NCBI GenBank assembly: GCA_051362555.1
Contig: CM120644.1
Coordinates: forward strand, 10,438,567 to 10,502,566
Reading direction: 5' to 3'
Length of the DNA stretch: 64,000 nucleotides
DNA from: Lingula anatina
Lineage: Eukaryota > Animalia > Brachiopoda
A program made the translations under genes and the position numbers. Below, piece after piece: positions 3,001 to 22,700 of the stretch; positions within the stretch are counted from its first letter, which is position 1; each line of letters opens with the position of its first letter. Below the pieces are notes generated by a model that saw only the letters and a list, made by a program, of their open reading frames with translations, searched no databases and was not told where the DNA came from.

Positions 3001-4609
3001 TAGACTTACATAATAACTTAAATAGTAGGATTAGGTTGACATTTATTACCAATTGAGTTGTAAAACACATGACAATGCTTAACTGATATTTGGAAACGGG
3101 TTTTACATTTGACGACGATATGTTAAACAGCCCAATGCTTTTAACATTCAAAGCTTTTAACATTTTAAACATTCATAAGGCCTCGTTATTTATCTAATTG
3201 AAAAAAGAGCTAATAATTGATGTGCATATCCCAACAGTAATGAGCGGAAGTATTGTGCAGAGACACGCGTGTGACTTCCGATCCCTTAAAGTGTTTGAAT
3301 GTCAGAAAAGAAAGCTCGGATTGCTGCTTTGAAATGTTCGACAACGAACAACACTTTAAACAGAACTTGAGGATCTTTAAATGGATCTGTGGCGCCAGCA
3401 GAATCTTATTAAACGAATGTAACTATAAACTAAGTGAAATGTGTCATTAAATCTGTATTAAGATAAGTGGGCACACTTGTCTTGGCGACGGTGGCGGCTC
3501 CTATTAAATTAAGCGTGCATTTCGCTTTCAGTTGTCTCCTAGCGTACTGTAGATCATGTGTCTTGTTTAATCACGTAGACTGTGCTTGTTCAAGTAGATC
3601 GATTTGTTTGATCTGATATTGGTTTCTGATGAATATGTTCAGTGTTTCTTTGCCATGACATTTTGACGCTTCGAATATGCCCAAGTCTGATATAGCAATG
3701 TTATAGAATCGCCAACTTACTAGTAATATTTAATTCAGTCACCTGAATTTTGTATAATGATTTGGAGTTTCAAATGCATATCAGGTTGCTCCAGGTGCAT
3801 CATATATGTTTAGATATACGATAGCCGTATTGTTATGAACACATTAATCTTAACGACACGCCCAGATATGTCTCATATCTACTTTACATGAGCTGTATGA
3901 GTTTTACTGCATGATGAAGTCCAAATTACGCTTGGTCATGAGATCCGCACGGTTCCTATAGAATAGATCGCAAAGGATGCTCATATTCCTGCTGCGTCAT
4001 TGATACCTTTGTCACATTTAATCAATACAAGTAAATAAGTGATTACTTCGGTAACAAACAGTTTGTTTTTATGTATATGGCAGCCCACATGTACCGATAT
4101 ATAATATGTGTTCGTGACACCTTGCCTTTCCACCGGCATCGCTTGTTGCGGATGCTTCAATAGTGTTTCTAAAAAGGGATAACGCAGTCTGGAAACAACA
4201 CGCAACGATTTTAGCATAATTCGTTTATACTTCACCCGTGGCTCACTTTCTTTCCTAGAACTTAACAGCCAACAGGACCATTTCAAAACAGAGTTATAAA
4301 CGCAATTCTTACCACAGCATATCATATCACAATTTATCGACTAAAAGTCTAATAAAATCACCGGGAAATGGTCTAATCTATAAGGTCGGTGATATTGTAA
4401 TAACTTTTCGCCTATGTAAATACCACTGGGCTCGGCACATTGCCTTATGTCAACACTCCCCTATTGACAAAAAGCTTGCGATCAAATTATATCTCTGGGT
4501 TCAGAGCTAATTTCAAACTTCACTGTTTGCTTCGGAGTGTCACTTAGGTCAAGTTAAGAAAAAATCAGAACATAACCCGACAGCAGTCGGTCATATGGAT
4601 TACAAGGTT

Positions 4610-4897
4610 TGTTGCGGGTGTCAGTCCAATTTTATTCAATTGTCAACGATATATAACATCAACTGGTAACAAATGGTACTGTTTATTGTCTAACATCAAC
4701 TTATGTCAACTTACATCAACTTTCATAAACTTTCAACTGGAAACAACTGGTAACAACTTTCATCTGAATCAACGTGAAACTCGTTGCGAGAATCTGACTT
4801 GTCTAACTAACACGTGCCGGCAAAAACTAAATACTATCAACACCGATACTACAATTAAGGTCAAGACACTACTAAAAATAGCTACTTGTCAGTTACA
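4610..4897 (-). repeat. 3' LTR (288 bp)
   Basis: Direct repeat of 10772-11059. Two minus-strand AATAAA hexamers (4631-4636, 4682-4687) are candidate poly(A) signals. Confidence 0.97.
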
Positions 4898-4907
4898 TGG
4901 CTCCCTT
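4898..4907 (-). promoter_or_regulatory. Plus-strand primer site in the PPT position (AAGGGAGCCA)
   Basis: Short purine run AAGGGAG followed by CCA, immediately before the TG of the 3' LTR on the minus strand. Confidence 0.75.
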
Positions 4908-5402: not shown

Positions 5403-8400
5403 TTATTGCGCTTCCTCTAACAAGCACAGTTTATGTATTGGTCGCATCAATATAGAATTCCTAGTCTTAATCTGAACTGTGCGAACAAGTCCATCCTTTC
5501 CTGGGTAAGTATTTATCACTCTAGCAATTGGCCACACATTTCTAGGAACATCTTCATCAATCACTAACACAATATCACCAATATTCAAATTTCGCTTTGG
5601 CTCCAACCACTTTTGACGACTTTGCAAGGTAGGTAAGTATTCTTTTATCCACCTGCACCAGAAAATGTTTGCCAAATACTGAACCTGCCTCCATCTGCGT
5701 TTGCTATATGTGTCTGTCTTGTCAAAATCACCTGGTGGGAGCACAGACCCAGAACGTAACAATAACAAGTGGTTTGGGGTCAACGCTTCCAAATCATTGG
5801 GATCACTGGACACCGGTGTCAACGGACGCCCATTCACAATTGCTTCCACAATACACATTAAAGTGACAAGATTCTCATCATCTAAAACTTGTTCTGTCAC
5901 AACACCTCTTAATACCTTTCTAACAGTTCTGATGGATCTTTCCCATACACCACCCATATGTGAAGCACTAGGTGGGTTAAAATGCCAATCTATGTGGTTC
6001 TGGTGTAAATAATCATGTATCTTACTCTGATTCCATTCTGTGACGGCTGCCTTCAATTCACGCTCTGCACCAACAAAGTTAGTTCCATTGTCTGAAAATA
6101 TTTTCTTGGGTTTTCCACGTCTACTGATGAAACGCTGCAGGGCATTAATAAATGATGAAGTATCTAGTGATTGCGCTATTTCAATATGCACTGCTCTTGA
6201 TGCTAAACATGAAAATAAACACCCATACCTCTTAACCTCTAACCTTCCACGTTTAATCAAAAATGGACCAAAATAGTCCACACCCACATAAGTAAAACAT
6301 GGTTCATTGGGTGTAACTCTAACTGTTGGCAAATCAGCCATTCTTTGCTGACATGGTAACGCATTGTTTCGCTTACATTTGACACACTTGCTGATCACTC
6401 TGCGAATGGATTTCCTCGCTCCTATAATCCAATACTTCTGTCTCAATTCAGAAAGCACATATTCCCGTCCACTATGTCCTAAGGCTTTGTGTTGCTCGTC
6501 AATAATCAAATCTACAACATGGTGCTGTGGTAAAATCACTGGATTTTTTATCCCTTCTGAAATAGCTGAATTGTTCAATCTACCACCAACTACTAACACA
6601 CCTGAAGAATGCATCACTGGTGCAAGCTTAAACAACTTACTTGCACGTTTAACACCACTCTGACTGTTCGCAGCTCGATTAATTTCTGAGAGCTCTTTCC
6701 CAAAGTGTTGCCCTTGGATATACTTCAAGATTTCTAACTCTGCCTTTTCTGTTTCTTCCACTGAAAGTGGACCTGTGGGTACATTCACCTTTTCTCTTCT
6801 ATGCCTTGCGATTAACCACTGTTTGAAGCGTAGTATCACAGCAACATCTTTCTTCAGCTTTTTCCACGAAGATCGGCGTTTTAGAATCTTATCTATCACT
6901 GATTCCTGTACTGACTCACTTCTTTGTGCTAGACATGTCTTGGGTCTCTTTACCTCTTTATCTTCGTCTGACACTCCTTTAACATCTGGAGTTTCTGGCC
7001 AGTGGCACTCACTCTGCTTAAGAAATTCTGGTCCTTCAATCCATCTGACACCGTTAACCATTTCATGGGCAGTGAGTCCCCTTGTGCAATCGTCAGCTGG
7101 GTTCCTCTTTGAATCGATGTAGTGCCACTGTGACGGAACTGAACCTTCTCTGATGACAGAGACTCTGTTTTCAACGTATGTTTGAAATCGCTTATCTTCA
7201 CTTCGAATGTAACTCAAAGTACACGTGCTGTCTGTCCAAAACATTGAACTGTCCACAGGAAAAGTGAGTTCCTGTCGTATCATGTAATCTAATCTGACTG
7301 CCATAGTAGCTGCTGTAAGCTCGAGGCGCGGAATCGTAAGCTGCTTGATCGGTGCCAACCGAGCCTTTGACATCAACAATGAAGTATGTATCTGACCTGA
7401 GATGTCTTGTACACGGAGGTAACTTACAACACCATACGCCATGGTAGACGCATCAGAAAAATGGTGTAACTGAATGCTGGCAATATTCTCAGGCTGTACT
7501 GGCTGTACACATCTTGGTACTTTCATTTCTTTCATCTTGGGCAAGCTGTTCTTCCAACCTGACCACTCTACCTGGGTTTTATAAGGCACAGCTTCATCCC
7601 AACCTATCTTGTCACGTGTTAAATCTTGTAACATCTTCTTCGCTCTGATAGTGAAGGGAGAAATAAAGCCCAGGGGGTCATAAATAGAACTGATGACACT
7701 TAAAAGGCCTCTCTTGGTCAATGGTTTCTTCTCAAGATCCATTTTATATGTGAAGCTGTCCACTTCAATGTCCCAGCAAACACCAAGAGCACGTTCTGTT
7801 GGCAAGGCCTGTAAATTCAAATCAAGATTCTTAATAGGCTTGGCTTTGTCTATGTCTGGTATCTTGGATAACACTTCTCTGCTGTTGCTAATCCACTTCG
7901 TCAGGTGGAAAACTCCCGTTTGCAGCAGACTCTGTAATTGACTGACCATGGTGATTGCCTCTGTTTCACTCATTACTGACTTTAAACAGTCATCTACATA
8001 GAAATTCTGTAAAACAGTATTGACTACTTCTGTGTCGTAATGACCTTTGTTGTCTTCCGCTGTGCGTTGCAATGCAAAATTACAGCAACTGGGACTCCAT
8101 TTGCCACCGAACAAATGTACTGTCATTCGATAAACTTTCTGTTCTCTTTCCAGATCCCCTTTAGGCCACCATAGAAAACGAAGAGAATCTCTCTGCACTT
8201 CTGGTACCTTCACTTGATGATACATGGCTTCTATGTCAGACATGATGGCTATAGGGTGCTGTCTAAAGCGTAACAATACACCTAATAAAGAATTCACAAT
8301 GTCTGGCCCCTGTAGAACTTGACTATTCAATGAGACACCCTGATGGCTAGCTTTACAGTCAAATACTACCCTTACTTTGTCTGGTTTTTTGAGGTTCACA

Positions 8401-10736
8401 ACATCATGGTGGGGTAGGTACCATACACTGCCGTCTTCTTTGTCAACTTCATCAGGGCTGACTTGTTCTGCATAACCTTTGTCAATTAAGTCCTCCATGA
8501 ATTCTGTGTACGCTTGATGTAAGTTAGGATCATGTGACAATTTTCGCTTTAAGCTGTCTAGGCGTTGCTCGGCCATCTGCTTGTTTGGCGGAAAATGAGG
8601 CTGCCTGTCTTTAAATGGTATCGGCAAACTGTAATGCTCGTCATGTTGAATCTTATCTTCCCATAAAGCGAGGACCCGCTTGTCTTCAACTGATAAACCC
8701 TTTTTATCAGATATCAATGTTCCATGGCCTTCTATTTTCCAAAACTGTTCTAATTGCTCATTCAGCTCACGATCTGCCTGAATAAATGTTGCCGTGGCAA
8801 CATGTCTACGCTTGCCACCAAGCGGTCCATTTAATGTCCAGCCCAACACAGTTTTTGTCGCATATGGCTCATTTGGACTTTGACCTCTCTTCACATCAAT
8901 AGGCATAAGCACCTCTGGATTGTCTTGTCCAATTATTATGCTCACCTTGGCATTCATGTGATCTATTTCAGGAAAATTCACTTCTTGTAAGTGACTCCAC
9001 TTTCTGATGTCCTCTGCACGACCCATGTTTTCCATGTTTACAGGTAATGATGGTCTTGTATACACAACTGGCAAATCAATCACATTTTTGTCTTCTAAAT
9101 CAGAAATCTGTAAACTGATCACTACAGTCTCTGAGACACTTTGTTCCTTTTCTAAGGTCGTAAGCTTTAACACTGTATTTTCACCCTGTGCACCAATAGA
9201 CTGCATCAACTCTTCTGAGCAAAATGTACTGGTGGATCCTGAGTCCAGCAACGCATAGGTGTGCACAAACTGTGATTTATCTGGAACTTTCACTTTCACT
9301 GGTACTATTGGCAAGGCAATTCGCATACCACTTTCCTTTCTGGTCCCATGAGCTCCATACGAAACTTCATTTACAGCACTGAGAGAAGTGTTTAGCCCTG
9401 TGTGAATGTGAGATAAATCTTCATGAACTGGTTCCCTTGTAACAGTTGGCTTCACCTGGTGCAAGAATTTAGTGTGTTTTTGATTGCACCCTTGCACTGA
9501 GCACGTACGTTGTAATCTACACATCTCAGAGAAATGTCCTGGCTTTAAACAGTTGTAACACAGTTTGTTGTCATTGGCAAATTTGAGTCTCTCAGGCAAT
9601 TTCATGGCTTTGAATTCTGTACACCCAAATAATGAATGACTGCTGCCACACTTAATGCATGGTGACTGAATAGATTTTCTTGTGTCACCATTAGGCTGTG
9701 AACTGGTGTCACCATTAGGCTGTGAACTGATAGCTGTAATACTGTAACTCCATCGGTTGTTGGGTCGCCTCTGTGAATCACTGCGACTGTCACTCCTTTT
9801 CACATGTGCTAGGCCACCATACACTGGATCATTTGCTATTTCTGCATTTTCAACAACAAATGCAGTGACATCTTTAATATCTGGGCACCTTTCTTCCTTT
9901 CTTATCTTACGTACTTCTTGTTTCCATTTGTGCTGCAAATAACCAGGGAGACGTTCAATGATTTTGACCAGTGAGCTTTGTGTGCTCAACTCTGAGGAAT
10001 TTCCCATTGCTTCAAGCGTTTCAGCACATGTTCTTAACTCGTCGGCATAATCCCTCAATTTTGTAACATCATTTGCCTTTATGGCTGGGCCTGTCGTGAT
10101 TTTCTTAACCCATGTCTCCGTAATAGTGTAGGCTGAACCAAATCTTTCCTTAAGCAACGCTTTAGCCTTCTTATATCCATCTTCAGGGTTCATTACAGCA
10201 CAACATTGAATTACACCATGAGCCTTTCCACTGGTATAATGAAGCAAACGAATTAATCTTGCGCCGCTGTCCACAGTTTCTTTCTCCACACTATTTTCAA
10301 AAGTTTTGATAAAATTCCAATACTGAAGAGGGTCTCCGTCAAATTTGTCTATTTCAACTTTAGGAATTTGTATAGAGTTCACTAAATGATGAATCACATC
10401 ATGACTACTCTGGTTTTGAGTCAAGTTGGTGGAATTTACCTGAATGTCCAGTTTTGTAGATGAAATTGGGGCACTGGTCTCCATCTCAGCTTCAGCATAC
10501 GCAGTTTCCTCTGCTAACAATTTTGCTCTTTCAGTGTCCAACTTGAGTTTCTCCCTTTGTTGTTTCAATTTCAATTCCTGTTCGTCCAAATGTTTCTTCA
10601 CTTCAAAAGATGCCAATTCTGCCTCAATGGCCATCCGTTTTGCCTTCGCTTTCAAGCGAGCTTCAGTTGAGCTCGTGCTCAAACTGCTAAATAAGCTGGC
10701 CGTTTCTATGTCTTCCATTTTTTGTTGCACGTCCAT
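5403..10736 (-). CDS. gag-pol: BEL/Pao Gag-Pol polyprotein (1777 aa): Gag with three Cys/His zinc knuckles, aspartic protease, reverse transcriptase, Pao-type RNase H, integrase, BEL C-terminal domain
   Basis: Gag-like PKVEIDKFDGDPLQYWNF. Knuckles CIKCGSSHSLFGC, CYNCLKPGHFSEMC, CSVQGCNQKHTKFLH. Protease ALLDSGST (~9234-9245). RT WYLPHH, KVRVVFD, NFYVDD (7989-8000). RNase H HHFSDAS, TIPRLEL, WTDS, NPAD. Integrase HHCC plus GVDYFGP, SDNGTNF, GGVWER. C-terminal RWRQVQYLANIFW...GKDGLVRTV. No stop or frameshift. Confidence 0.97.
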   Translation of the reverse strand: MDVQQKMEDIETASLFSSLSTSSTEARLKAKAKRMAIEAELASFEVKKHLDEQELKLKQQREKLKLDTERAKLLAEETAYAEAEMETSAPISSTKLDIQVNSTNLTQNQSSHDVIHHLVNSIQIPKVEIDKFDGDPLQYWNFIKTFENSVEKETVDSGARLIRLLHYTSGKAHGVIQCCAVMNPEDGYKKAKALLKERFGSAYTITETWVKKITTGPAIKANDVTKLRDYADELRTCAETLEAMGNSSELSTQSSLVKIIERLPGYLQHKWKQEVRKIRKEERCPDIKDVTAFVVENAEIANDPVYGGLAHVKRSDSRSDSQRRPNNRWSYSITAISSQPNGDTSSQPNGDTRKSIQSPCIKCGSSHSLFGCTEFKAMKLPERLKFANDNKLCYNCLKPGHFSEMCRLQRTCSVQGCNQKHTKFLHQVKPTVTREPVHEDLSHIHTGLNTSLSAVNEVSYGAHGTRKESGMRIALPIVPVKVKVPDKSQFVHTYALLDSGSTSTFCSEELMQSIGAQGENTVLKLTTLEKEQSVSETVVISLQISDLEDKNVIDLPVVYTRPSLPVNMENMGRAEDIRKWSHLQEVNFPEIDHMNAKVSIIIGQDNPEVLMPIDVKRGQSPNEPYATKTVLGWTLNGPLGGKRRHVATATFIQADRELNEQLEQFWKIEGHGTLISDKKGLSVEDKRVLALWEDKIQHDEHYSLPIPFKDRQPHFPPNKQMAEQRLDSLKRKLSHDPNLHQAYTEFMEDLIDKGYAEQVSPDEVDKEDGSVWYLPHHDVVNLKKPDKVRVVFDCKASHQGVSLNSQVLQGPDIVNSLLGVLLRFRQHPIAIMSDIEAMYHQVKVPEVQRDSLRFLWWPKGDLEREQKVYRMTVHLFGGKWSPSCCNFALQRTAEDNKGHYDTEVVNTVLQNFYVDDCLKSVMSETEAITMVSQLQSLLQTGVFHLTKWISNSREVLSKIPDIDKAKPIKNLDLNLQALPTERALGVCWDIEVDSFTYKMDLEKKPLTKRGLLSVISSIYDPLGFISPFTIRAKKMLQDLTRDKIGWDEAVPYKTQVEWSGWKNSLPKMKEMKVPRCVQPVQPENIASIQLHHFSDASTMAYGVVSYLRVQDISGQIHTSLLMSKARLAPIKQLTIPRLELTAATMAVRLDYMIRQELTFPVDSSMFWTDSTCTLSYIRSEDKRFQTYVENRVSVIREGSVPSQWHYIDSKRNPADDCTRGLTAHEMVNGVRWIEGPEFLKQSECHWPETPDVKGVSDEDKEVKRPKTCLAQRSESVQESVIDKILKRRSSWKKLKKDVAVILRFKQWLIARHRREKVNVPTGPLSVEETEKAELEILKYIQGQHFGKELSEINRAANSQSGVKRASKLFKLAPVMHSSGVLVVGGRLNNSAISEGIKNPVILPQHHVVDLIIDEQHKALGHSGREYVLSELRQKYWIIGARKSIRRVISKCVKCKRNNALPCQQRMADLPTVRVTPNEPCFTYVGVDYFGPFLIKRGRLEVKRYGCLFSCLASRAVHIEIAQSLDTSSFINALQRFISRRGKPKKIFSDNGTNFVGAERELKAAVTEWNQSKIHDYLHQNHIDWHFNPPSASHMGGVWERSIRTVRKVLRGVVTEQVLDDENLVTLMCIVEAIVNGRPLTPVSSDPNDLEALTPNHLLLLRSGSVLPPGDFDKTDTYSKRRWRQVQYLANIFWCRWIKEYLPTLQSRQKWLEPKRNLNIGDIVLVIDEDVPRNVWPIARVINTYPGKDGLVRTVQIKTRNSILMRPIHKLCLLEEAQ

Positions 10737-10753
10737 TTTGACCTTTGACCTTT

Positions 10754-10771
10754 AGATCCTCCGAGTTTCAC
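10754..10771 (-). promoter_or_regulatory. Non-canonical primer-binding site (GTGAAACTCGGAGGATCT), complementary to the element's own LTR
   Basis: Directly abuts the 5' LTR end and lacks TGG. Its reverse complement matches the minus-strand LTR segment AGATTCTC-GCAA-CGAGTTTCAC (10957-10936). Confidence 0.7.
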
Positions 10772-11059
10772 TGTTGCGGGTGTCAGTCCAATTTTATTCA
10801 ATTGTCAACGATATATAACATCAACTGGTAACAAATGGTACTGTTTATTGTCTAACATCAACTTATGTCAACTTACATCAACTTTCATAAACTTTCAACT
10901 GGAAACAACTGGTAACAACTTTCATCTGAATCAACGTGAAACTCGTTGCGAGAATCTGACTTGTCTAACTAACACGTGCCGGCAAAAACTAAATACTATC
11001 AACACCGATACTACAATTAAGGTCAAGACACTACTAAAAATAGCTACTTGTCAGTTACA
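10772..11059 (-). repeat. 5' LTR (288 bp)
   Basis: Minus strand reads TGTAACTGAC...CACCCGCAACA. No difference seen from 4610-4897. Lies upstream of the gag ATG (10736). Confidence 0.97.
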
Positions 11060-14000
11060 AGGTTCATTGCACTGGGTGCAACATTGCACTATAATGCTGT
11101 CCGTCTTATGTGCTATACCATGGACCTGATAGGTGGTTTATTTTGAGAGTGTTTTTTATGAAATTGATATCCATGTAAATTTACCTTCATTTTTTGTCAT
11201 TTCCATCTATTTATTGATGCGTTTAAACTGTTTTGTACTTATCTGTTCCGATTGGTTTGTTTTATCCTTGATAAATCTACGAAACATTTTAAATGCATTT
11301 AAGACTTTAAATAAATACCGTACTGTTATTATAAAGTAAGGTTAGCCATACGGTCGGTGACAATAATGCATATACATTTCTACCTCACGGTAGCCAGTGA
11401 CCAACAGGTGGGCACGCATGACCTTTCCAAGTAGATATAGTATCTACTGTACCTTACTTTTGTTAATTTTAGTCTGTTAAGATAATTTGGGATTTATTTT
11501 ATTCCAATCGATTAGTTGAATCAATACCATGAAGCTATGTAAGACAGTGTGTGTATAAAGCAAATGAAGAAAAAGAAGAAAATAGCACCGTCTGAACCGC
11601 AATGTCGCACATTTGTACATATACACTTAATCACAAGGTAGCTAATGAAGTTGTCTCCTTCGAAGAGTAACTCTCATTTATAAATGTCTTTCCATGAGAT
11701 CCATGCACCATTTATATAAGTACATTTTACTGCCATGCCTACTGTATCATTAGATGCGCATTGAGAACACTCTGAAGCAAGGAAACCCCCATCCGACATT
11801 CACGCAAAGGCGTCGGACAAGATTCCTTCGTCATTTGGTTAAGGTTTGCAATAATATCACTTGGATTTATTGTGGTTAATGTCCAAGACAGTTGTATGTT
11901 AATACAATCTGTTCATCATCAGCTTAAATATGTTGTACATATGGACTGTTTTCATGTTCATGGTATGAGTGACCTCTGTTGTCACCGGCGACTCATTACA
12001 GTAAGAACCGTTGAAATGTTAGTAGATGCATCAAGCTGTTTAAAACTGTTTCAGGAATGATTTGATTTAACTAACTCTGACATGTCAGATCCCACGCTAC
12101 GGACTGTGTGTATTCTGATTTGTCTCTTCTCTCATTTCCCTCAACCGATGCATAAAGCTTTGTAACATATTGGCTGGGGCTGTCCCTTGTGGATCGAATC
12201 CGTCTTCAATTCGCAAAAGATGATTGGCATACATCATTTGGGAGCCTTCAGAAAGAATCAGGAAACCGCCGACGCATTAAAAACCTTAATTTGAAAGCTG
12301 TAATATTTAGCTTCAAGGTTTCCCTTGGCGGTAGGCCTCTACTTTCCTAGTTTCCACTAGCCCATTTTGGATCAACTTGAATCGACCCCAGTGCCTACTT
12401 TTCTGTTAATATCAACTTCAGAGGTGGGGGATGCGACTTCATCCAGATGGTGCGTGGCATGTAGATCTCAAGTTGGATTCAACGCTGTCCGCGTGTTGTC
12501 CACTCGCTACTGTGGAGTCGAGCATCTCCAAGTGAGACGGCACTTTAATCGAATTTGGACGTGATCTAAAACAGCGCAGTATGAAAGTGCTCAGACTTCT
12601 TCTCTCTCTGTGTCTGCCTTCACTTATGACGGTCTTGGAATGGATGAAATGCGACTGATACGCATCAACCTTCAGGATTTGTGGATTTTGTCCTTTAACA
12701 GCTCTGACTTACGGGTGCGTTCAATTTCCTGCAACTTGTCCTCAAAAGCACCATGTTTTCCCGAAAATAGCATATTTTGCTACATTTAAAGAATACGGCA
12801 TATTTTACTGTGTACTTGTAAAAGGGTTATTAAGTATTATATTAATTGTTTACATCCCTTTATTAAATCCCAAGCCAAAACTTAGCACGATTTGAGATAC
12901 AGAAAGGTGACAATGTTTCACTATAGTAGATAGACATACAGTTCCACCCAATTTGTCTTACATTGTTACATCGAATACTTTGATGATGACTACTTATGAT
13001 TTTGCTTTGATGTATTCTACTCCATTTTTCCATCCCATTTACGTGACTATTGTAGATAATGCCTTGACCTTTTAGAACACAGCAGTCACTGCTGCTTATA
13101 ACAAGTATAAAATGCTGTTCTGATCGTTCACAATCCCTAATAGAACTCGACGGGATTTCAGGCAAACAAAAAATAATTCGTTATTTAAAGCAGCAGATAC
13201 AAGCTACCATGGAATATGTTTGAAGGCATGTTGAGTGACCCAAATTTAAGCAAAATAAATAATAATTTAAACAACTTTATTGTCAAGGGGTTCACAATGG
13301 CACTGGCGACGTTGCATGGTAAAAACACGCAATTTAGTCTTGGTGGTTCACTATGTTATAGAAAACAAAAACGTATATGATGGTTTATGCTGACTCCCTG
13401 GCATCATCTAAATGTACATGTTCTAGATAGAAACAGCACAAAGCTAAATATTGGTTTTCTAATACTTGGCAGTCAAACCATATTTTAAGGGGGTTTAACA
13501 CAGTGTTTTTTTAGAGCTTGCTTTTCAAGTTCTATTAAAATCACTTTTTACTTTGATATACTGTTACATGTATATTTGATTATATGAAATAATTAATTGT
13601 ATTATCTGTGTGCGTGTAGGAATGGTGGCGCTTGATTAAGGATGAGGGTGCGCGCATATGTGTATAAAAATCCACCTTCAATAGACAGCAAAATTTCACA
13701 GAAACACATCTGAAGTAATTGGTTTGAAATAATTCCACAAAATATAATGTTCCATCTTACTAGAATCAATACTTTGAAGTTCAAATCAACAGTCTGAATT
13801 CTATCAGCCGCGACATGTTGCAGGGTTAATACTATTTGATGGATATGTATACCTGTATTGTATAGTTACTTTCAATGGTAAGTGCTGTATTGGTGAATCG
13901 GAGACATATGAGACTCCATTCAATATTCATTATGAAATATTATACTCCCACATCTTGTCAAGGCCCCCACCACTCCTGCACTGACATCATAATAAATAAA

Positions 14001-14495
14001 TAACGAGTTTTATAGCCGCCATTCAATATGTCACCGGTGACATAGCATGAAAAAAAATATAAACAAAGGCTGTTTTTCATCATCGTCTAATATTGTCGGT
14101 GTCAGATTTTTTGGAAGTGTTGACATCTCTTAAAATATTTAACAATTAACTGGGATATAATTGGACACGCCTGGGAAAGCTGCAAAACGTATTGGGGGCT
14201 GTTGTTTATCCAAGATGAATAGAATTGTTTGCTTTAGAAGTATTTGGCTCTATATATAAGTACTTCTAATGAAATATGCACTTTCATGACATATTATTAT
14301 TATCTGGTACTGATGGTGAAAAACAGATGGTTGGAGTCGCGGTGTTTAGATCCTTGATCAATGCCCTTGATCAATGACCGATTCCTCGCAGTAGGTCCTG
14401 GCATTAGGAAGCGCGAAGACAGGTTGAATCTCCCCCCCCCCCCCCCCACACACAACGTTGACATCACTCAGCACACACCTGCGTACACATAATAG

Positions 14496-14674
14496 GAGCG
14501 CATTCAGAGTAGCGGACTTACAGATCCGCGGATCAAATATGGCCGGCAAATATTACTTTCGTAATCCCTGCGGGGAATCTATTCAATGTCTAATTGGGAA
14601 TTAAAGGGCAAGCTTTTTAGTGAGTTGCCATATTTGATCTGTGGATCTGTTAGTCCGTTGTTCTGATTGCGCTC
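14496..14674. mobile_element. MITE, PIF/Harbinger-like non-autonomous DNA transposon (diverged)
   Basis: ~48-bp imperfect terminal inverted repeats: GAGCGCATTCAGAGTAGCGGACTTACAGATCCGCGGATCAAATATGGC versus GCCATATTTGATCTGTGGATCTGTTAGTCCGTTGTTCTGATTGCGCTC. Flanks TAG/TTA, an imperfect TWA-type target duplication. Confidence 0.7.
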
Positions 14675-15481
14675 TTACACGCACACAAGTTATACATGTA
14701 GGTGCAACCTCGCAAAAAGTCACACGCTTGCCTACCTCTATGTTTAAGTCTAAATACTTCGAAACTCCGTTCATAGCAACATGTATCGATATTTTGATGT
14801 GAAGATGTCTTTTACATTTGAAAATGATATATGGCTCATTCCCAACTCCCTTGCTCACCAAGCAAAAAACACTTGCCCATATATCCCGCTTTATTTTTAA
14901 TGTCTTCTTGGCGCCGTCTCTACGGATGCTTCCATGTTGCGTGACCTAGCTCTGCCGCATACAACCACGTGTAAATATTTTACAGGAATCTTCATTTCAT
15001 AGCTTTGACTTCAGTGATGATGGTGATGATTATTTTCTTATATTGTTTCAGAGGCCAGGTACAAATTAGAAGAGTAAAAGACTGAAAGACTACATGTGTG
15101 ACGTTCTTAATAAGACCCTGGGGAATAAAGTGAAAAGAATCCGGATCTGAAGTCACATGCATGGTCCAATGAGGTAGGTCTACATATTGTCATCATATTG
15201 CCTGGTGATTTTAATGACAAATATTTTGCAGTTTACCAGTAAGTACAGTGGGAGTGATATATGCACTCGCAAATTGCTCCATGTGAGTGTCATGATGTAT
15301 TGGCACGTGCTGTAGTCAGGAATCAGTAAGTTAAAGTGTGGTCGTTATAGTTACAGCCCAAACTTGGTTTTGGTGTTTTGGTGTTTCTGAGCGGTTGTTA
15401 ATTTAGATGAATAATGCATCTTCAGAGTTGTGTTATTATTCAAGTAATGTTTCTCAACCACTGACCATGACACACGTCTTA

Positions 15482-15621
15482 GGCCGCGTTCACAACCAAT
15501 TGATCTGCGGACTAACTAGTTCGCGGATCAAATATGGCGCGCACATGACAGTGGATTCTCGCCTTCCGCTCTCGACGTCCCACCAAGTTAGTTCGCGGAC
15601 CAACTGGTTGTGAACACGGCC
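15482..15621. mobile_element. MITE, PIF/Harbinger-like, 140 bp
   Basis: TIRs GGCCGCGTTCACAACCAATTGATC and GACCAACTGGTTGTGAACACGGCC (3 mismatches). TTA duplicated at 15479-15481 and 15622-15624; a 3-bp TWA duplication is typical of PIF/Harbinger. Confidence 0.82.
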
Positions 15622-16566: not shown

Positions 16567-16724
16567 TGCTTTTGGTGCCGCGTTGCGCTATTGTGAAAAA
16601 CAACCTTAATTTATGTACAGTTCCTTTCTCATAATCCACTATAAAACTATGCTTGTGGTGCCGCATTGCGCTATTGTGAATAACAATCTTAATTTATGCA
16701 CTGCTCCTTCCTCATCTTCCACTA
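16567..16724. repeat. Diverged two-copy tandem duplication, ~83-bp period
   Basis: TGCTTTTGGTGCCGCGTTGCGCTATTGTGAAAAACAACCTTAATTTATG... at 16567 recurs as TGCTTGTGGTGCCGCATTGCGCTATTGTGAATAACAATCTTAATTTATG... at 16650. Confidence 0.88.
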
Positions 16725-19700: not shown

Positions 19701-22700
19701 ATGCTATCGAAAATGTATAAGTTGTATAAGTCTCCTGCATTAAAACATGTATGCGTGGCAGAGGTAGGTTTATTATTAAAGTGCATATAATGCCTGCTGT
19801 GGGCAAAAGCTATTTGTTTCAATTACCGAATACACGTGTGTATTAGCAGATGAAATGCTGTTGAAAGTTGGCTTTATTTGTTGAGCAACTCCAAGGCCAC
19901 AAGATGATGATGTTGTTATTATCAAATAAAGATTGATCCAAGTGTTTTGTTTGTATCTCTCCTCATTAATATGAGAAAACGAATTGATTTCCGAAAGGTA
20001 GTAATCAGACACAATACACCGACCCCATTATCTGTTTGTTATACGAATACTTAATTCACAATTGTAGTCTCACGGTCTTATTTAAAGGAACTGGCTTACA
20101 CATCATAGAATTATAATTTAGTAACTGAGATATGATTAAAAAGACATAGCTACATGTATAATAATTTAACTTAAGCTGATATCAATCATTTTTCACCTGG
20201 CGGTATGTAGGTATATCTCCTGCACATATTTGGTGTCCGGAATGAAGCAAAAGTTGTAATTAGCAAAAACGTCCATTAGCTTGGTTGTTGGATTATAGAC
20301 GAAAATTATTTAACACAAGCTGGAGTTTCTCCTCCTACCATTCGCTTACGATTAACATATAATAAACACCGGCAACAGTATTGACTGGAAATTAGCTAAA
20401 ATCCTTGAATCCGAGTCATTCGACATCGTAAAATACGAGATGCAATCGACATCGGCCTTCACCAGCCACCCTTGAATAAGGAGGGATGGGGGGTCTTTTG
20501 GCCTGACTTTTACAATAGGGTCCTCAAGTCAGCGTGATGAAGGCCTACGTCCAGGTTGGCCGCAAGCTAACGGCGGGGATTTTCAGCTTGTACTGAATAA
20601 TTCTCATCTATATTGCAAGCCGCATTATTATAATTATCCAAGAATAAAAACACATTAATTAATTAAGGATCCAACTTGAGATTCATAGCCGTTCACCCTT
20701 CAAGCGGTTATAGTGCAACTTGGGTAAAGTGTCGATTTTCATAAGCTTATGTTTAAGAGAAAAACAATGGGGTTTTCTTATCGACTTTTGAAGCGCGCTG
20801 TGTGTGTTTTCATTATTCAGAAGACGGTTCAAATGGTATGCATTAACTGTTCTAAGTCTTCGGGTGGCAGCTGATCATTCCAGTAGGTGGTCGAGTCCTT
20901 CAAGTGTAAAAACAGGAAAGGATATGACAGACCTCTAGCTGGCTGGATACTGTTTCAATAATTAAAAACGCTGCAAAGACATTGAAGAATTTATAACTGG
21001 TTCGATACTGTCTTGTCGTGTGTATGTGGCGTCGAGAGGGATAGACACCGTGGAATAGTATCTGTAAAATCAGCGTGCAAACCAAGGCCAGTTTGATGCT
21101 TTTTTTCGTCAATGAGGCGTCGAACATATCATCTGAATCTTGTACCATTTGCCTTGTAGTTAGTGCACTGCTGCTGCGTGGGCCTTTATTTTGTAAACAG
21201 TCTAATGGAATGTTAAGGATAGCTGTATAAAAGAAACAGGAGTATCGACCACTGTGTGAGACAAGCCAGTCTAATATCAGCCACAAGGTGGACAGAGACA
21301 AAGCTAGCGCACTGTGGTTACACCTAGTTACACGGCAGGGCAATGAGAAACAAAACCCATGAGATTCATGTGGCTTGCACGCGGAACAGACAATGTGCTC
21401 TGTATTCGTTTTGTCATGGATAATAGATGCCGAACCCGATATAGTAAAAATACAAGGGATGAGTCTGATAGTTTACACAGCAGGCGAAGACACAGACACA
21501 GTAGTCAGTCAACAGCAGAGCAATAAGTGCGTAACCACAGTAACGGTATGTCAACATTTCCAGGGTAAGGTATGATTTATTGTGTTTATACAGTTATCAT
21601 TTTCTGTAAAGCGTTGTATGCTGTTGAGTACAGTAGTAGGGGAAAAGGGAAAGGTGAGATAGGGACGCAGTGTACTTCCAGGACTCGCGAAGCTGGGGCA
21701 GTGAGGGGGAGGATAAATATACCATACCCCCTCCCCCCCCCCCTCCCCCGGTTAGGGGACAATGACGATTTTATCTTAATTTGTAGGGCGCTGTGATGGG
21801 ACTATTGTTTGGTTTCTTAGATTTAGCTAAGTGTATCGAGGGGGGGGGGGGGGGGGGGAAAGGGGGTGCTTTCAAAGATAAAGGGTGTGTACATTACCTG
21901 TACCAACTGATCTTGACAGATGCCTTACAGCTCTAAATCGCCTAGCTTTACCATGTGTTGCATGCTGTTGTTGTACTAGGCTGCACCAAGTGAACCATCA
22001 CGACGTGTTTATTGCGTAATGGGTACTGGTATTTATGTTTATCGTATGATTGTACATACATTATGCAGTGTGGCATATGAATGACGGAATTTCATTTTTT
22101 TTTCTTAAGCTTTTGAGCTGCCAAGACAGTAAAAAGTCCAGGTAGCTATATGCTAAATGTTTTGTCCGGTGGTTTCAGTGAATTGATATTGATTTTAAGA
22201 ATAGTTATGAATCGTATACTTATTACAAACCCTTTGACGTAACTGGTATATGCATACATATCCTTAGTATTTACGACAGTATAGATTCCTTAATGGTATT
22301 CCGAAAAGCAGTTTTTGGCTACTCGCGCCGAGGTACCCTAGAGGTATCAAAAATTAAAGCAATACATTTAAGAAATAATGAAAGTGTATTTAGGAAAAGA
22401 GACGTCATTGTACGTTGTTAAGGTATGTGACTTGAAGGTGCTGAACTGTGTGTTTGTTATACTCATGGGGTCCACTAAGTATTTTTCCACTGTCTGCGTT
22501 GATAATAAAAATATATAAAAAAAAAACAATCTATAAAATCAAGATAGGAGTAGATACACGTTGGGTAATATAGTACCACCTCAAAACGCATTTTCTGAGG
22601 AATAAATGCACATGTGTCATTTAGAAAAGCAACAGACCCAGATTTAGATATTGTGAGAACATTGGATGTGTAGTTATTTCCTGTATTAAGGAAAGCTAGA

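Follow-up and report, generated by a model that had tools for sequence, protein, structure and literature searches.

A BEL/Pao retrotransposon of the brachiopod Lingula anatina most likely starts minus-strand DNA synthesis on a piece of its own long terminal repeat (LTR) RNA, independently of any tRNA, a reading to which we assign a probability of roughly 0.85. The element lies in a 64,000-nucleotide stretch of the Lingula anatina genome, referred to below as the window. Pairing between the primer-binding site (PBS) and the element's own LTR is kept, with different letters, in dozens of distant relatives, so the whole group is likely to be self-priming, often with a spliced RNA. Self-priming is a mechanism of a known kind, but in BEL/Pao it is apparently undescribed, as is the splice-built primer predicted for most of the relatives.

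The window holds an intact, full-length element of 6450 bp on the minus strand (Table 1). Its LTRs are identical over 288 bp and are flanked by AACCT on either side, which points to a recent insertion. The Pfam domains of the gag-pol product follow the order DUF1759, protease, reverse transcriptase (RT), Pao peptidase A17, integrase and DUF5641; the A17, DUF1759, DUF5641 and H2C2 matches score above the curated cut-offs, and the RT, rve and protease matches below them. Over 53% of the query, the Gag part matches a Lingula anatina protein with 92% identity. Both the set and the order of these domains are those of BEL/Pao (Belpaoviridae), and the LTRs (288 bp, within 0.2-1.2 kb), the total length (6450 bp, within 4.2-10 kb) and the polypurine tract (4907-4898) agree with the size and architecture of the family. 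The single gag-pol frame, the domain order, the LTR size, the polypurine tract and the 5-bp target site duplication are all shared with the Belpaoviridae described by the ICTV (PMC8742986). According to the same source, replication of BEL/Pao elements is poorly understood and assumed to be tRNA-primed, from an 18-nt site complementary to the 3' end of tRNA-Arg or tRNA-Gly (PMC8742986). The window element and its lineage differ here from the ICTV description, since no TGG follows the LTR, whereas an insect-type BEL element among the relatives collected here (L092) has such a site. The window element is thus filed as BEL/Pao from its protein and architecture alone and departs from the priming described for the family.

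Table 1. Features of the BEL/Pao element and of its predicted self-priming structure (positions in the window)
Feature	Position	Strand	Remarks
5' LTR, TGT...ACA	10772..11059	-	288 bp, same sequence as 3' LTR
3' LTR	4610..4897	-	primer segment present again at 4795-4774
Target site duplication AACCT, left copy	11060..11064	-	5 bp, flanks 5' LTR
Target site duplication AACCT, right copy	4605..4609	-	5 bp, flanks 3' LTR
Polypurine tract	4898..4907	-	directly before 3' LTR
gag-pol, single open frame	5403..10751	-	1782 codons, first ATG at 10736
Non-tRNA PBS, proximal 10 nt, GTGAAACTCG	10762..10771	-	adjoins LTR end
PBS, distal part, GAGGATCT	10754..10761	-	differs among family copies
Proximal primer segment	10936..10945	-	perfectly complementary to 10771-10762; primer predicted to end 3' at C10936
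Bulge GCAA	10946..10949	-	4 nt; A-rich bulge also in relatives
Distal primer segment	10950..10957	-	pairs with 10761-10754, 8 pairs, one G:U
Segment pairing with U5 end (10773-10776)	10932..10935	-	4 nt, pair probability 0.96-0.97
AATAAA, candidate poly(A) signal	10844..10849	-	86 nt past primer end; a second one at 10798-10793

The 5' LTR ends in ...GCAACA at 10772 and is followed directly by GTGAAACTCG (10771-10762), with no TGG, as the initial annotation had described. Its account of the duplex between LTR positions 10957-10936 and the 18-nt PBS also stands, with ten pairs, a 4-nt bulge and eight further pairs that include one G:U, and so does the extra pairing that it had drawn at the end of U5 (10935-10932 with 10773-10776), in which the terminal A at 10772 stays unpaired. 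LTR 10945-10936 complements the initial 10 nt of the PBS exactly, the match ending at 10, and this segment closes with A-C as in most relatives. Pair probabilities in this helix are 0.9-1.0 irrespective of whether the fold is started at 10960, 10990 or 11059. An exact 10-mer complement arises in 10 of 20,000 dinucleotide shuffles of the window LTR, the energy of the PBS-LTR duplex (-24.3 kcal/mol) is equalled in none of 5000 shuffles, and in the duplex energy test the PBS is the best among 5856 internal 18-mers. The 231-nt region as a whole folds with no unusual stability compared to shuffles (z = -0.49). On a permissive helix-length score against the window LTR, the value of 10 is also reached by 2 of 82 downstream windows and by one of 15 sites from other families. 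Among the host DNA contig matches listed, no substitution falls within 10926-10963, the flanks on either side being variable, and the diverged matches start or stop at 10930-10960. Other copies of the family in RNA runs carry different letters at 10759 and 10760 (three of three reads in run X16, one of one in X18).

Relatives were collected with an alignment of 46 polyproteins, giving 94 loci, of which 79 are metagenome loci (from the best 80 of at least 527 confirmed) and 15 come from genome records. The relatives come from echinoderms, a ribbon worm, fish and marine samples, with identity to the window protein mostly at 37-56% in the best segments; the viral contigs searched contained no relative. 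An unbiased set could be assembled from 15 non-TGG elements in 12 families, the window element included, for which the LTR end was fixed by comparing the two LTR copies. An uninterrupted complement of 10-15 bp to the own LTR, starting 0-4 nt after the LTR, is present in all 15, under a splice rule that was loosened after a stricter one had missed L056 and L082 and that scored L049, L081 and L082 with a non-consensus donor; the strict rule brought 12 of 14 to a score of 10, L081 by another helix. No more than 5 of 82 downstream windows, and no more than one of the 13-15 sites of other families, equal the own score, and the TGG-type BEL control, L092, has an own-LTR complement score of 4. Across all 94 loci the helix was found in 57, comprising 44 that were tabulated, six near-duplicates and seven recovered later (L028 by eye), and some of these helices lay outside the distance or donor filters and were recovered by eye or with looser rules. 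The remaining 37 consist of L092, which has none, and 36 without a match, those inspected having no LTR end or primer region on the contig. Matches of 22 bp in L088 were rejected, their source being a large inverted repeat upstream.

The proximal helix was tabulated for 45 elements, which were chosen for pairing, so that only the fixed-LTR-end test of 15 is unbiased. These 45 elements carry 38 distinct 11-nt primer sites. The helix is 10-16 bp long (11 bp in 21 of the 45) and has A-C or A-U as its final bases; its start lies in all cases within 0-6 nt of the LTR end. Within this table selected for pairing, helix positions 3-10 show three or four pair types each, and sites of different families match at 0.41 per position. 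An A stands at -12 from the primer end in 29 of the 45 elements and at -13 in 31, forming an A-rich bulge. In L003, L044 and L048 a perfect complement of 15-16 bp spans the usual position of this bulge, as though the site had taken up a longer stretch of primer sequence by copying. The distal helix was not a search criterion and still pairs better with its own partner (-8.6 kcal/mol) than across elements (-5.5 kcal/mol; none of 20,000 permutations, kinship uncorrected), the own partner being the best in its row for just 6 of 37 elements. The GCAA bulge and the 8-bp helix of the window element match this pattern of the relatives, so the structure was drawn correctly from the outset, and the covariation that had been proposed as a check across diverged relatives is indeed seen, with pairing kept under changed letters, the bulge and the second helix included. 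Three matched changes across the intron are seen in L081 and L082, where the exon end TAA has become CAC and the site TTA has become GTG across introns of 451 and 338 nt; L001/L004 and L028/L056 are further pairs of close relatives with two-sided matched changes. L034 has a mismatch within the exon-2 part of its primer. G:U pairs occur in one of 150 proximal pairs versus 16 of 102 predicted distal pairs (Fisher p = 2.7e-6), counting L037 and L050 in place of their family copies L029 and L049. L018, with a 168-nt intron, was excluded from the distal-helix, G:U and initiator tests.

The complement of 25 of the 38 distinct sites becomes contiguous only once a GT-AG interval is taken out of the LTR DNA. 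The predicted introns, among them L044 1201-1276 and L081 1356-1806, measure 76-1022 nt, mostly have a GT(A/G)AG donor and a pyrimidine-rich acceptor, and place the splice junction 3-8 nt from the primer 3' end; with the unspliced LTR alone, the ten intron-bearing members of the unbiased set score 5-9. The window LTR is intronless, and no intron-bearing version of it is present among the host DNA contig matches listed. A donor-like GTAAGT at 10876 was considered as an intron donor and rejected, as no acceptor passed the filter. An RT-RNase H tree with 40 labelled elements shows nine changes of intron state, at least four of them forced by strongly supported branches, and the tree fits intron gain and intron loss alike. 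The sister families L002/L018 and L004/L005 differ in the presence of the intron and are alike in the LTR bases near the primer end, which suggests, judging from these bases, precise loss or gain. L089 (positions 3100-4200) combines a window-like tract and LTR start with a predicted 625-nt intron that has a weak donor, and in the same interval a TGG-type site of another element adjoins an N gap. We consider it quite probable that these elements represent a widespread, tRNA-free aquatic BEL/Pao lineage whose ancestral primer was made by spliceosomal splicing of an LTR intron; the PBS would be a reverse-transcribed exon-exon junction, host splicing would gate reverse transcription, and the intronless families would be repeated escapes.

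Mechanistically, the RNA of the window element would fold such that the LTR segment 10957-10936 pairs with the PBS. The RNase H domain of the RT may then cut just 3' of C10936, by analogy with Tf1 as described in the available parts of PMC7175516 and PMC5341516, and the RT would extend the new 3' end into U5. In the general scheme of LTR element replication, plus-strand synthesis would in each cycle restore about 11 nt of the PBS as a copy of the primer. Such copying would account for strict Watson-Crick pairing and for the changes matched on both sides, and would be expected to leave the proximal helix nearly free of G:U, as observed. A poly(A) signal at or past the primer end would leave a shared repeat for strand transfer, and a canonical signal is found in this position in 35 of the 45 elements. 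In L003, L014, L081 and L082 it lies within or directly past the primer segment, and the repeat left for the transfer would be very short. In the intron-bearing families the primer would be a product of host splicing, and for the intron to persist the new LTR would have to be templated by an unspliced RNA copy. The family of the window element and other intronless ones may have lost the intron precisely or may never have had one. Plus-strand synthesis would itself start from a tract that most of L002-L085 carry before the 3' LTR, usually GGGGCCGG followed by 0-3 bases; it contains two C's and hence is not a pure purine run.

Which copy of the LTR sequence supplies the primer is a separate matter, since an intron that must survive copying from RNA leaves the 5' copy (with the 3' copy unspliced), the 3' copy or a separate short transcript as potential sources. 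Within the self-priming reading the 5' R copy acting in cis, as in Tf1, is the most likely source: the available parts of PMC7175516 and PMC5341516 describe Tf1 and Tf2 as using the 5' R copy, and the predicted cis fold at the 5' end has a probability near 1. It is possible, and on balance rather doubtful, that the same molecule provides the primer from its 3' R copy instead, or that a short spliced RNA made from a 5' LTR or a solo LTR acts in trans and would function like a private tRNA. The persistence of the intron demands one unspliced copy, for which a primer in trans would be a simple solution, but for the intronless families such a source is superfluous. RNA spanning U3 and R does exist, as RNA reads run on into the sequence before the 3' LTR and those of run X15 cover 10870-11059. 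No conserved start signal adjoins the helix: of 40 elements, 3 have the motif TCA(G/T)(T/C) at a distance of 20-29 nt ahead of the primer end, a frequency not above that of the other bins. The four RNA runs available by species label give only 8-43 matching reads each and reveal no pile-up at a start site, no poly(A) site and no splice joint. The initial annotation had taken an initiator-like TCAGATT as the transcription start and proposed a self-primer of about 22 nt. The motif is present and self-priming as such is strongly supported by the conserved complementarity, but a start at 10957 finds no backing in the relatives, and the primer length that was derived from it is likewise unsupported.

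Priming by the LTR RNA, from whichever copy, has to be weighed against the idea that the pairing is a conserved RNA switch involved in packaging, dimerisation, translation control or splice sensing, with priming left to a protein or another RNA. The second helix accepts G:U as an ordinary structure would, but the near absence of G:U from the proximal helix, the lack of an alternative primer site in the element and a helix that begins every time within 0-6 nt of the LTR end, exactly where a primer must end, make this reading quite unlikely. The absence of TGG excludes the 3' end of a full tRNA as the primer. Primers derived from the anticodon loop exist in other LTR elements, according to the available parts of PMC10886601 and PMC6317226, so the primer might in principle be a cleaved host tRNA half, such as a tRNA-Glu fragment ending in UUUCAC, with the LTR segment serving as a decoy or regulator. 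Many primer ends are indeed loop-like, with T at -7 and -6 in 33 of the 45 elements and A at -2 in 43, but each of the 38 different sites fits its own LTR. Position 32 of the tRNA anticodon loop is a pyrimidine, where the seventh base of the window site, C10765, requires a G, and we regard a tRNA half as highly improbable. ARAGORN detected zero tRNAs in the window and in 30 loci examined out of the 94, and an Rfam search of the window found nothing. Chance, or a local inverted duplication within one family, could account for a permissive score that two control windows reach as well, but has a negligible probability given the 5000 shuffles and is refuted by the 15 of 15 fixed-LTR-end elements in 12 families.

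Self-priming by LTR RNA is established for Tf1 and Tf2 and predicted for Tcn1 (Ty3/gypsy) and the copia TAR lineage, as stated in the available part of PMC6317226; these predictions imply that self-priming is not limited to one superfamily. In Tf1 the RNA's initial 11 bases pair with the PBS and RNase H cleaves between bases 11 and 12 (PMC7175516, available part). The window element resembles Schizosaccharomyces pombe Tf1 and Tf2, of the Tf1/sushi group, in having no tRNA site and about 11 nt past the LTR that are complementary to its own RNA. It would work like Tf1/sushi without being a member of this group of Ty3/gypsy chromoviruses, having Pao-type domains and no chromodomain match. Unlike in Tf1, the pairing continues past the A-rich bulge into a second helix, so that the RNA probably reaches further 5', the site in the lineage lies up to 6 nt from the LTR, and the primer of most relatives is split by a predicted intron. 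The plant TAR elements (Houba as well as Osr-1; Ty1/copia) and Tcn1 were predicted from a complement of at least 10 bp located 0-5 bp after the 5' LTR (PMC6317226, available part), a description that also fits the window element. Unlike those lineages, it is a BEL/Pao element with animal hosts, and the blastn test described in the available part of PMC6317226 would miss primers split by introns.

The initial annotation knew of no self-priming in BEL/Pao, and a full-text literature search likewise found no report of BEL/Pao self-priming or of a split primer, most subscription papers, Repbase reports and supplements lying outside its reach, so that a prior mention is possible. The available portions of the BEL/Pao surveys PMC554778, PMC3118150, PMC6238403, PMC2774666 and PMC8556966 contain no discussion of the PBS, and that of PMC8220671 is generic only; neither self-priming nor a split primer in BEL/Pao appears in the available portions of PMC3601003, PMC10886601, PMC11042837 and PMC12859917.

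Several observations made alongside concern the sources of the relatives and the rest of the window. The insect-type BEL element L092 (positions 9455-15434) is complete and has both a TGG site and a target duplication of 5 bp. It is located in a 1.44-Mb Wolbachia chromosome record, which could reflect a real insertion in the symbiont, a copy of Wolbachia in the nucleus or an assembly chimera. L080-L091, L093 and L094 are animal BEL/Pao elements within GTDB species-representative MAGs and are probably host contamination. Elsewhere in the window, positions 14493-14677 hold 51-nt inverted arms separated by 83 nt, MITE-like and with a related copy 1 kb off at 15507-15546, positions 16567-16724 hold two direct repeats of 75 nt with 83 nt between them, and an open frame of 190 codons at 20900-21472 has no match in Pfam.

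Under the self-priming reading, annotation based on a tRNA site or on a contiguous self-complement would misjudge these BEL/Pao elements. If this reading is true, BEL/Pao would be the third superfamily of LTR elements with self-priming, and this in animals. How an intron can survive in an LTR for which RNA serves as the template would be a testable puzzle. With a primer that spans a splice junction, the onset of reverse transcription would be coupled to the spliceosome of the host, and a splice-built primer would constitute a control point beyond the reach of tRNA-fragment defences.
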